Part shown: positions 62,453-63,962 of the stretch, in pieces
Layout: each line of letters starts with the position of its first letter
How positions within the stretch are numbered: the first letter of the stretch is position 1
Assembly: GCF_058153355.1 (NCBI RefSeq)
Contig: NZ_CM177019.1
Length of the DNA: 64,000 nucleotides
Reading direction: 5' to 3' (one strand)
Made by a program: the position numbers and the translations under genes
Notes under the pieces: generated by a model
Seen by the model: only the letters and a program-made list of their open reading frames with translations
The model's database searches: none
What the model was told of the DNA's origin: nothing

Positions 62453-62805
62453 TGAAAATTGCAGGCACCTGTTTTTTTAAAGTGGATGGTCAGCAGTTAT
62501 CGCTGACAGGTGGCATTGAAGTGCCGATGAACACCAATGTCCGGGATGACATCGTCGGCATGGCAGGGGATGTGGATTACAAGGAGACCTGGCGGTCACC
62601 TTACGTTAAGGGCACGTTTAAAGTGCCCAAAAACTTTCCGGTCGACAAAATTACCACATCAGACCAGATGACGATTACTGCCGAGCTGGCAAACGGCATG
62701 GTGTATGTGCTTTCGGCAGCATGGCTGCACGGCGAAGCAAACCATAATGCCGAAGAAGGTACGGCAGATCTTGAATTCCACGGCGAAGAGGGAGGATATC
62801 AGTAA
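62452..62805 (+). CDS. tail tube protein
   Basis: 117 aa immediately after the sheath gene. Confidence 0.55.
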   Translation: MKIAGTCFFKVDGQQLSLTGGIEVPMNTNVRDDIVGMAGDVDYKETWRSPYVKGTFKVPKNFPVDKITTSDQMTITAELANGMVYVLSAAWLHGEANHNAEEGTADLEFHGEEGGYQ

Positions 62806-63134
62806 TGAGCGTGACAGAAATTGTTTTAAAAAAACCGGTGACAGCGCATAACGAAACGCTGCATGTGCTGGAGTTGCGTGAACCCACGTATGACGAAATT
62901 GAGATGCTGGGTTTTCCTTTCATTATTTCCGGTGAGGGCAGTATTAAGCTGGACAGCCAGGTGGCACTGAAATATATCCCGCTGCTGGCGGGGATCCCGC
63001 GTTCATCGGCGGCGCAGATGGCAAAACTGGATATTTTTAAGACCAGCATGCAGATCCTGCGTTTTTTTACCCAGTCGGAGACGGAAAGCACCTCCGGAAA
63101 CGACTCTACAATGTTGCCTGGTTCTGGAAACTGA
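62805..63134 (+). CDS. tail assembly chaperone
   Basis: 109 aa; T7 slippery run near its 3' end with a 55-codon open -1 frame reaching 63226. Confidence 0.55.
   Translation: MSVTEIVLKKPVTAHNETLHVLELREPTYDEIEMLGFPFIISGEGSIKLDSQVALKYIPLLAGIPRSSAAQMAKLDIFKTSMQILRFFTQSETESTSGNDSTMLPGSGN
63062..63068 (+). promoter_or_regulatory. candidate programmed -1 ribosomal frameshift site (T TTT TTT)
   Basis: Heptamer in zero frame (R-F-F-T); the -1 frame stays open to 63226. Confidence 0.45.
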
Positions 63135-63218
63135 ATCCACTGGAACTGCGACGGGTGGCTGTTTCGCAGTTTACAGAACTGGAAGCCGAGGCCGTCCGCA
63201 TTAACGAGGAGATGAAGC

Positions 63219-63962
63219 ATGGCTGACAGTTTTCAGCTGAAGGCGATCATCACTGCCGTGGATAAGGTGTCGGCACCGCTGAAGGGAATGCAGCGCCAGC
63301 TGAAAGGCTTTAAAAAAGAGTTTGCCAGCCTGTCACTGGGCGCAGCGGGTGTCGGAACCGCAGTACTGGGGGCGCTGGCGCTCCCGGTCAAATCTGCCAT
63401 TGCCCTTGAATCAAAAATGGCGGATGTCCGGAAAGTGGTGGATGGTCTGGATACGCCGGAAGCGTTTAAGGCAATGACGGAACAGGTGCGCGACCTGTCG
63501 ACAGAACTGCCCATGTCGGCGGAAGGTATCGCCGAAATCGTGGCGGCGGGTGGTCAGGCGGGCATTGCCCGTGACGAGCTGATGCAGTTTGCGCGGGATG
63601 CTGTGAGAATGGGGGTGGCATTCGATACCACGGCAGACGAGTCCGGCCAGATGATGGCACAGTGGCGCACTGCGTTCAAACTGACTCAGGATGAGGTTGT
63701 GGGGCTGGCTGACAAAATCAACTTTCTCGGCAACACCGGTCCGGCTAATGCGAAAAAGATTTCTGATGTTGTGACCCGTATTGGCCCTTTAGGCAGTGTT
63801 GCGGGTGTGGCCTCCGGAGAGATCGCCGCAATGGGGGCAACCATTGCCGGAATGGGGGTGGAGTCAGAAATTGCTGCGACGGGGATAAAGAATTTTATGC
63901 TGTCGCTGACAGCGGGGAATTCTGCCACCAAATCGCAGAAAAAAGCGCTTCGCCTGTTGTAA
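63219..63962 (+). CDS. tape measure protein-like (N-terminal-type domain only, 247 aa)
   Basis: Gly/Ala-rich helical protein in the tape-measure position; ends with a stop followed by a strong hairpin. Confidence 0.5.
   Translation: MADSFQLKAIITAVDKVSAPLKGMQRQLKGFKKEFASLSLGAAGVGTAVLGALALPVKSAIALESKMADVRKVVDGLDTPEAFKAMTEQVRDLSTELPMSAEGIAEIVAAGGQAGIARDELMQFARDAVRMGVAFDTTADESGQMMAQWRTAFKLTQDEVVGLADKINFLGNTGPANAKKISDVVTRIGPLGSVAGVASGEIAAMGATIAGMGVESEIAATGIKNFMLSLTAGNSATKSQKKALRLL

Follow-up and report, generated by a model that had tools for sequence, protein, structure and literature searches.

A predicted programmed -1 frameshift conserved in the tail assembly chaperone gene of phiP27-like prophages

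The stretch of DNA analysed here, which is called the window throughout, comprises 64,000 nucleotides (nt) of contig NZ_CM177019.1 from the NCBI RefSeq assembly GCF_058153355.1, and its last 6 kb are filled by a phage late operon on the + strand. In the tail module of this prophage, the genes for the sheath, the tube, the tail assembly chaperone and the tape measure follow each other in this order, and the chaperone gene carries a candidate site for programmed -1 frameshifting. The open reading frames (ORFs) and signals found at this site are the following.

62805..63134, + strand: zero-frame ORF of the tail assembly chaperone, 109 amino acids (aa), equivalent to 'G' or to E of phage P2, defined by ORF calling and PF10109
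63062..63068, + strand: slippery heptamer T_TTT_TTT, read as X_XXY_YYZ with a Phe codon in each of the P and A sites
63068..63226, + strand: -1 frame extension, 52 codons plus TGA, equivalent to 'T' or to P2 E', in which reading would resume at 63068 (TAC)
join(62805..63068, 63068..63226), + strand: predicted fusion ('GT'), 140 aa, by a -1 slip at the heptamer
63069..63134, + strand: zero-frame C-terminal tail of G, 21 codons, rich in Ser, Thr and Gly, overlapping the T frame and apparently unconstrained in evolution, judging by its ratio of nonsynonymous to synonymous polymorphism (pN/pS)

The ATG of the chaperone gene at 62805 overlaps the stop codon of the tube gene (TAATG), and GGGAGG is found upstream of it at 62790-62795. 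At the heptamer, the zero-frame codons are CGT (63060), TTT (63063), TTT (63066) and ACC (63069); thus, the run of seven T's is read as T_TTT_TTT, as tandem -1 slippage requires. The -1 frame is open from 63041 to 63226 (61 codons in total), and the 52 codons that follow the slip would encode the peptide YPVGDGKHLRKRLYNVAWFWKLNPLELRRVAVSQFTELEAEAVRINEEMKHG. Its stop codon, TGA at 63224-63226, creates an 8-nt overlap with the tape-measure ATG at 63219 (ATGGCTGA). The predicted fusion would consist of the first 88 residues of the chaperone and a different 52-residue C-terminus, with the junction peptide ...ILRFFYPVGDGK. Between the end of the chaperone ORF and the tape-measure start there is a gap of 84 nt without any zero-frame gene, and the GAGGAG that lies ahead of the tape-measure ATG (63206-63211) is located inside the T coding region.

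With regard to family assignment, the 109-aa ORF matches the Pfam family PF10109 (Phage_TAC_7, 'Phage tail assembly chaperone proteins, E, or 41 or 14') over residues 6-75, with 31.0 bits against a gathering cutoff of 25 (E=2.7e-7), as well as the tail protein family phrog_166 (E=5e-28). Public databases list the exact sequence as 'phage tail assembly protein [Escherichia coli]'; in NCBIfam, neither the chaperone nor the fusion nor P2 E+E' has a matching model. The PF10109 score and the slot between the tube and tape-measure genes support the assignment of this gene as a tail assembly chaperone. The -1 extension matches phrog_32181 (E=1.4e-5). An AlphaFold model of the fusion, based on a 10-sequence alignment, reached a mean predicted local distance difference test (pLDDT) of 92.3 and a predicted template modelling score (pTM) of 0.82, in which the T part forms three helices with values of 85-95. 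The top match of this model in BFVD was 'Tape measure chaperone [Burkholderia phage Mica]' (E=6e-5), followed by several 'Tail assembly chaperone' entries. These results agree with the sequence-only reading that preceded this analysis, which had recognised a tail assembly chaperone with a frameshift fusion (PF10109 is above its cutoff, and the flanking genes encode the tube and the tape measure), a T TTT TTT heptamer close to the gene's 3' end (seven T's at 63062-63068, in the correct register) and a 55-codon -1 frame ending just inside the tape-measure start (54 sense codons and a stop when the count starts at the heptamer's first T).

The distribution of this arrangement was then examined in related phages. 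Across the tube, chaperone and tape-measure genes, the window DNA is 95% identical to the Stx2e phage phiP27, and also to prophages of about 50 complete E. coli genomes. By using the hypothetical fusion as a tblastn query, both halves could be detected in two frames in 20 of the 30 matching phage records, with identity down to 34%. These matches include phiP27, SfIV, vB_EcoM-720R4, ST64B, Yersinia YeP1-3, Pantoea AH07, Edwardsiella EPP-1, Paraburkholderia IPK and the Pseudomonas fluorescens DVM-2008 element. A frame-by-frame comparison was conducted on 12 related loci, 10 of which are distinct named phages or elements. Each of these 10, like P2, has T_TTT_TTT, T_TTT_TTC or T_TTT_TTG at the aligned Phe-Phe/Leu codons and in the same register, the last base being C in the SfV branch, T in the phiP27-like copies and G in P2. 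Among the relatives compared, the first Phe codon of the slippery site is always TTT, and the codon ahead of the run always ends in T (CGT, AAT, GGT, AGT or CCT, encoding Arg, Asn, Gly, Ser or Pro). Taking the first base of the tape-measure start codon as reference, the -1 ORF ends between 3 nt before and 10 nt past it in each of the 10 named relatives. The predicted fusions of the relatives are 138-150 aa long and the zero-frame products 89-109 aa, with a tail of 3-21 codons after the heptamer, and the extension keeps a common motif (YNVAWFWKLNPLE, FDCASYWRINPFE or YDLAWFWKVDPEQ). At the protein level the -1 frame is conserved down to about 30% identity, and this conservation spans phages of Enterobacteria, Pseudomonas and Burkholderia.

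A similar picture was obtained from IMG/VR, where TTTTTTT ACC in register together with an ATGnnTGA overlap was found in 77 of the 78 evaluable loci. The sole exception, L015 (IMGVR_UViG_2534681784_000009, ST64B-like), has eight T's at 1752-1759 and hence a single fused ORF of 138 aa without a short product, which could reflect a natural mutation to a 'fusion-only' state or an error in sequencing the homopolymer.

In the Pseudomonas fluorescens Q8r1-96 element DVM-2008 (locus L009), both the T_TTT_TTC site and the -1 extension are kept at 1446-1616. This element is an SfV-like tail cluster that has no head and integrase genes, and it is treated as a pyocin-like element in the literature. The frameshift appears to be retained in this tailocin-like cluster too.

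To follow selection along the gene, pN/pS was calculated in all three frames for 48 distinct sequences of the phiP27, SfIV and ST64B group, which gave the following values.

150 nt upstream of the heptamer: zero frame 0.25, -1 frame 2.1, +1 frame 1.03
63-nt overlap: zero frame 1.08, -1 frame 0.35, +1 frame 1.40
84 nt after the zero-frame stop: zero frame 1.7, -1 frame 0.155, +1 frame 3.4

This pattern indicates that the heptamer marks the exact point where purifying selection leaves the zero frame for the -1 frame; the short product's zero-frame tail is evolutionarily unconstrained. The sequence-only reading had named a -1 frame that is not conserved in homologues as the observation that would speak against it; in the comparison the frame proved to be conserved, the register was the same in every lineage, and selection switched frame at the site.

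Two other reading frames of this region were also considered as coding candidates and rejected. The +1 frame is open for 77 codons (62971-63204) and is not coding, with a pN/pS of 1 or more. An antisense ORF (62675-63220, minus strand, 181 aa, ATG-initiated) spans the whole chaperone gene and is considered spurious, with a corresponding stop-free stretch of only 78-117 codons in SfIV, ST64B, SfV and YeP2 (160 in DVM-2008).

Taken together, it is suggested, with a probability of roughly 90%, that the locus encodes a conserved two-product tail assembly chaperone of long-tailed phages by means of a programmed -1 frameshift, in which both the slippage and the fusion protein are predictions. Most ribosomes would translate 62805-63134 and release the 109-aa chaperone, while a minority would slip with two tRNA-Phe on TTT TTT (63063-63068). 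Both tRNAs would re-pair one base back on T_TTT_TT, and the -1 frame would be read from 63068 to the TGA at 63224-63226, which would yield the 140-aa fusion. If the system works like lambda G/GT and P2 E/E+E', the N-terminal part common to both products may coat the tape-measure protein and the frameshift-only C-terminal part may recruit the tube protein; a fixed slippage frequency would set the ratio of the two products, neither of which would end up in the virion. It has been reported that the H_HH.U_UU.Y class, including U_UUU_UUY, belongs to the -1 motifs with the highest efficiency in E. coli, and that U_UU.U_UU.U and U_UU.U_UU.C shift measurably (above 0.10%) without a stimulator (PMC4066793). 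When 52-82 nt downstream of the heptamer were folded for the window and six relatives, no significant or shared stimulatory RNA structure was detected (z-scores from -1.7 to +0.7), and no obvious Shine-Dalgarno-like motif was seen upstream of the heptamer on reading the sequence. A stimulated -1 frameshift of the dnaX or IS3 type was rejected, as no conserved hairpin or pseudoknot was found 5-9 nt after the heptamer.

Among the other explanations, transcriptional slippage fares best, although it is quite improbable. RNA polymerase might add a U in the run of seven and thereby generate a subpopulation of mRNA that carries the fusion in one frame. The run here is indeed T7, and an inserted U would yield the same protein except for one junction residue; moreover, E. 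coli genes contain fewer U7 and A7 runs than expected in every frame, for which transcriptional slippage or indels are a possible cause (PMC4066793). However, the deeper branches and P2 have six T's only (T_TTT_TTC or T_TTT_TTG), which is short for efficient polymerase slippage. In addition, the codon register, including a synonymous T before the run, is kept in every lineage, and the register matters for tandem tRNA re-pairing and not for the polymerase. The P2 site is also annotated as a translational frameshift. The six T's of these branches and the conserved register imply that transcriptional slippage cannot be the conserved mechanism, and polymerase slippage may add a minor contribution at T7.

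It could also be argued that a heptamer happens to precede a fortuitously open -1 frame and that the 109-aa protein alone is made. Based on the ORFs of at least 150 aa in the window, in-register X_XXY_YYZ heptamers account for 0.47% of codons, so that about 0.5 would be expected per 109-codon gene, and the -1 frame is open for at least 52 codons at only 4.9% of positions; the joint chance for one gene is therefore only roughly 2-3%. The window holds 88 in-register heptamers, nearly all of which are meaningless. One of them, A_AAA_AAA at 62828-62834, is located near the 5' end of the chaperone gene itself. A -1 slip at that site would reach a stop after 6 codons, and relatives freely swap it for the synonymous CTG AAA AAG or TTA AAG AAA; it is probably incidental and serves as an internal control. 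The evidence from the single genome is thus suggestive, not decisive. On the other hand, the T-run heptamer, its register, the -1 ORF, the end point of this ORF and its peptide are all conserved across Enterobacteria, Pseudomonas and Burkholderia phages, the -1 frame is under purifying selection, and the fusion model folds with high confidence. This strong comparative evidence carries the frameshift site well beyond chance, and a mere coincidence, which is very improbable, is effectively refuted by the comparative data already.

Scarcely credible is the suggestion of a pseudogene or homopolymer sequencing error, in which the true gene would be a single 140-aa ORF (T8) broken by a one-base deletion. 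Homopolymers are prone to indels and L015 does have T8 with a single-frame fusion, but 77 of 78 IMG/VR loci and every named phage, plaque-forming isolates among them, show the two-frame layout, the zero frame reaches its stop 3-21 codons later in each lineage, and the experimentally tested P2 has the same layout. Finally, an independently initiated small gene in the -1 frame, which has in its favour two PHROG families of 63-68 aa and unknown function (32181 and 11318) where gene callers sometimes called this frame separately, deserves next to no credence, for the extension frame of the window has no ATG, GTG or TTG before 63155 and only two start codons in all (GTG 63155 and ATG 63212), the most conserved motif (YNVAWFWKLNPLE) lying upstream of both, has no ORF of at least 30 aa in the window's ORF list, shows no purifying selection upstream of the heptamer (pN/pS 2.1), and is open upstream of it for a stretch that varies from 54 to 96 codons in close relatives and reaches 122 in BgVeeders33.

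Several points weigh against a programmed frameshift with two working products at this locus. The occurrence of slippage, its efficiency and the binding partners of the products are all inferred. The pN/pS values derive from phylogenetically non-independent pairs among 48 related sequences, and this set was chosen by the TTTTTTTACC anchor, a choice that is justified by its presence in 77 of the 78 IMG/VR loci. For the T extension, no Pfam match was found at E-values up to 10, including PF06528 (P2 GpE), and hhalign is the single source of its link to P2 E' (85% probability). The BFVD matches of the fusion model have modest TM-scores (about 0.44), a Foldseek search of this model against the PDB gave no match, and the fusion profile had no sequence match to solved structures. 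Moreover, as the tape-measure gene of this prophage copy is disrupted by an IS4 element, the frameshift signal seen here may be a relic.

Two modestly bolder proposals, which are rather unlikely, go beyond the conserved translational frameshift. The branch of phiP27, SfIV, ST64B and YeP might have lengthened its run from T6 to T7 and might combine ribosomal and transcriptional slippage, giving a chaperone-to-fusion ratio unlike that of the T_TTT_TTC relatives; according to the second proposal, Mu/SfV-like contractile tails and tailocins might have a 'T domain' family of their own, so far undescribed, to which the 52-aa extension would belong and which would be related to P2 E' at the profile level only.

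The neighbouring genes of the late operon, between whose major capsid and tail sheath genes lie the connector and terminator genes, and the IS4 end that interrupts the operon were annotated as follows.

57731-58957, + strand: HK97-type major capsid
60956..62452, + strand: tail sheath gene (PF04984, PF17482 and PF17481; phrog_165, E=8e-219)
62452..62805, + strand: tail tube gene (PF10618, E=4e-33; phrog_185)
63219..63962, + strand: tape-measure gene, N-terminal 247 codons only (PF10145, E=5e-33; phrog_14441 and phrog_28, tape measure)
63951..64000, no strand assigned: end of an IS4 element interrupting the tape-measure gene (98% identity to IS4 ends in ~2,600 E. coli genomes)

The tape-measure ORF has 247 aa here versus 649 aa in the phiP27 homologue. 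Homology to phiP27 and to the E. coli prophages ends at about 63953-63959, and the matching IS4 end in E. coli CE10 is the terminus of an annotated IS4 transposase element. Because the tape-measure gene is cut by IS4, the tail module of this prophage is probably defective; this copy of the module is probably no longer functional, with its putative frameshift signal intact.

Some additional features of the window were also observed. A small ORF of 53 aa (60798-60959) lies between the tail terminator and the sheath gene, and in E. coli UMNF18 the corresponding ORF is labelled a DUF2635 protein. The prophage adjoins mtfA and integrase genes. Out of 5,426 complete E. coli genomes, the best match to the chromosomal flank (cbl, nac, mtfA region; window 26000-36500) is only about 93-95% identical, and proteins of Escherichia marmotae occur in the 90% cluster of the chaperone; the host may belong to a divergent Escherichia lineage. 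The chromosomal part also contains a very long ORF of 2,687 aa on the minus strand (window 7900-15963).

The main value of these findings concerns annotation, in that the 140-aa fusion is missing from the records. The fusion is annotated neither in the records of phiP27, SfIV, ST64B, SfV, YeP2, AH07, EPP-1 and DVM-2008 nor in the E. coli genomes examined that were annotated with the NCBI Prokaryotic Genome Annotation Pipeline (PGAP), and the SfIV genome paper calls the chaperone gene 'hypothetical' (PMC3851460). Among 15 billion collected proteins, the 109-aa product occurs, but none of the three fusion sequences looked up (window, phiP27 and SfV) does. Very probably, the 140-aa fusion is essential for tail assembly in a prophage family that occurs in many Escherichia, Shigella and Salmonella genomes and includes Stx2e and serotype-converting phages, and it is probably also made by related Pseudomonas tailocin clusters. 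The feature is a textbook case of a conserved programmed frameshift that is unannotated in its clade, and biologically it offers nothing new beyond the G/GT and E/E+E' paradigm.

In phage lambda, the G/GT products arise by a -1 shift at the slippery sequence G_GGA_AAG (Levin et al. 1993; Xu, Hendrix & Duda 2004, 2013, 2014; summarised in PMC5009743), and the same summary describes the G/GT-type arrangement as conserved across long-tailed phages. The window shares with lambda the gene position and the two products with a common N-terminus and an extension that has no start of its own. The hallmarks of this arrangement are all present: the location between the tube and tape-measure genes, a startless overlapping second ORF that ends at the tape-measure start, a slippery sequence in register, and conservation despite divergence. 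However, no sequence similarity to lambda G or T was detected, the slippery sequence differs, and lambda has a non-contractile tail whereas the module here is of the contractile type.

For phage Mu, a -2 frameshift is reported in the literature (PMC5009743). The sequence-only reading had proposed Mu-type chaperone genes for comparison; such a comparison was performed and the homologues keep the site, but Mu itself turned out to be the wrong model, with an extension in the +1/-2 frame, and the homologous system is P2 E/E+E' instead. The sheath and tube genes next to the chaperone gene resemble Mu L/M, following the annotation of ST64B and related records, and the Mu chaperone occupies the same slot. 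On the other hand, Mu gp41 is a 144-aa protein of PF23746 that falls just below the PF10109 cutoff (24.7 versus 25 bits), its extension of 55 codons lies in the +1/-2 frame, and the -1 frame of Mu ends 107 nt before the tape-measure gene. A Mu gp41-type assignment (-2 shift, PF23746) was rejected for the window, whose protein matches PF10109 only and whose +1 frame has a pN/pS above 1. Within the family of phiP27, SfIV, ST64B and SfV, the heptamer and the -1 ORF are identical in layout.

The closest comparison is provided by P2, where the -1 frameshift of E/E+E' at T_TTT_TTG was experimentally characterised (Christie et al. 2002, as cited in PMC3091744) and is also annotated in the RefSeq record, with products of 91 and 142 aa (versus 109 and 140 aa in the window). 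Several differences were found: sequence identity is only about 16%, the last base of the heptamer is G in P2 and T here (C in the SfV branch), the extension has no PF06528 match with HMMER while P2 E+E' scores 76 bits, and the surrounding tail genes are Mu/SfV-like and not P2-like. In both systems, nevertheless, the N-terminal part belongs to PF10109, the chaperone gene is located between the tube and tape-measure genes, and the heptamer stands in the same register at aligned ...GF(F/L) codons. The fusion stop overlaps the tape-measure ATG by 8 nt in each (ATGAGTAA in P2), and the lack of a downstream stimulatory structure in the window set parallels what PMC3091744 reports for P2. Moreover, hhalign aligned the fusion with P2 E+E' over 120 columns (E=6e-6), and the junction ...RFF|Y was placed opposite ...GFL|F. 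The site in the window is homologous to the P2 E/E+E' site, and P2 is its closest characterised system.

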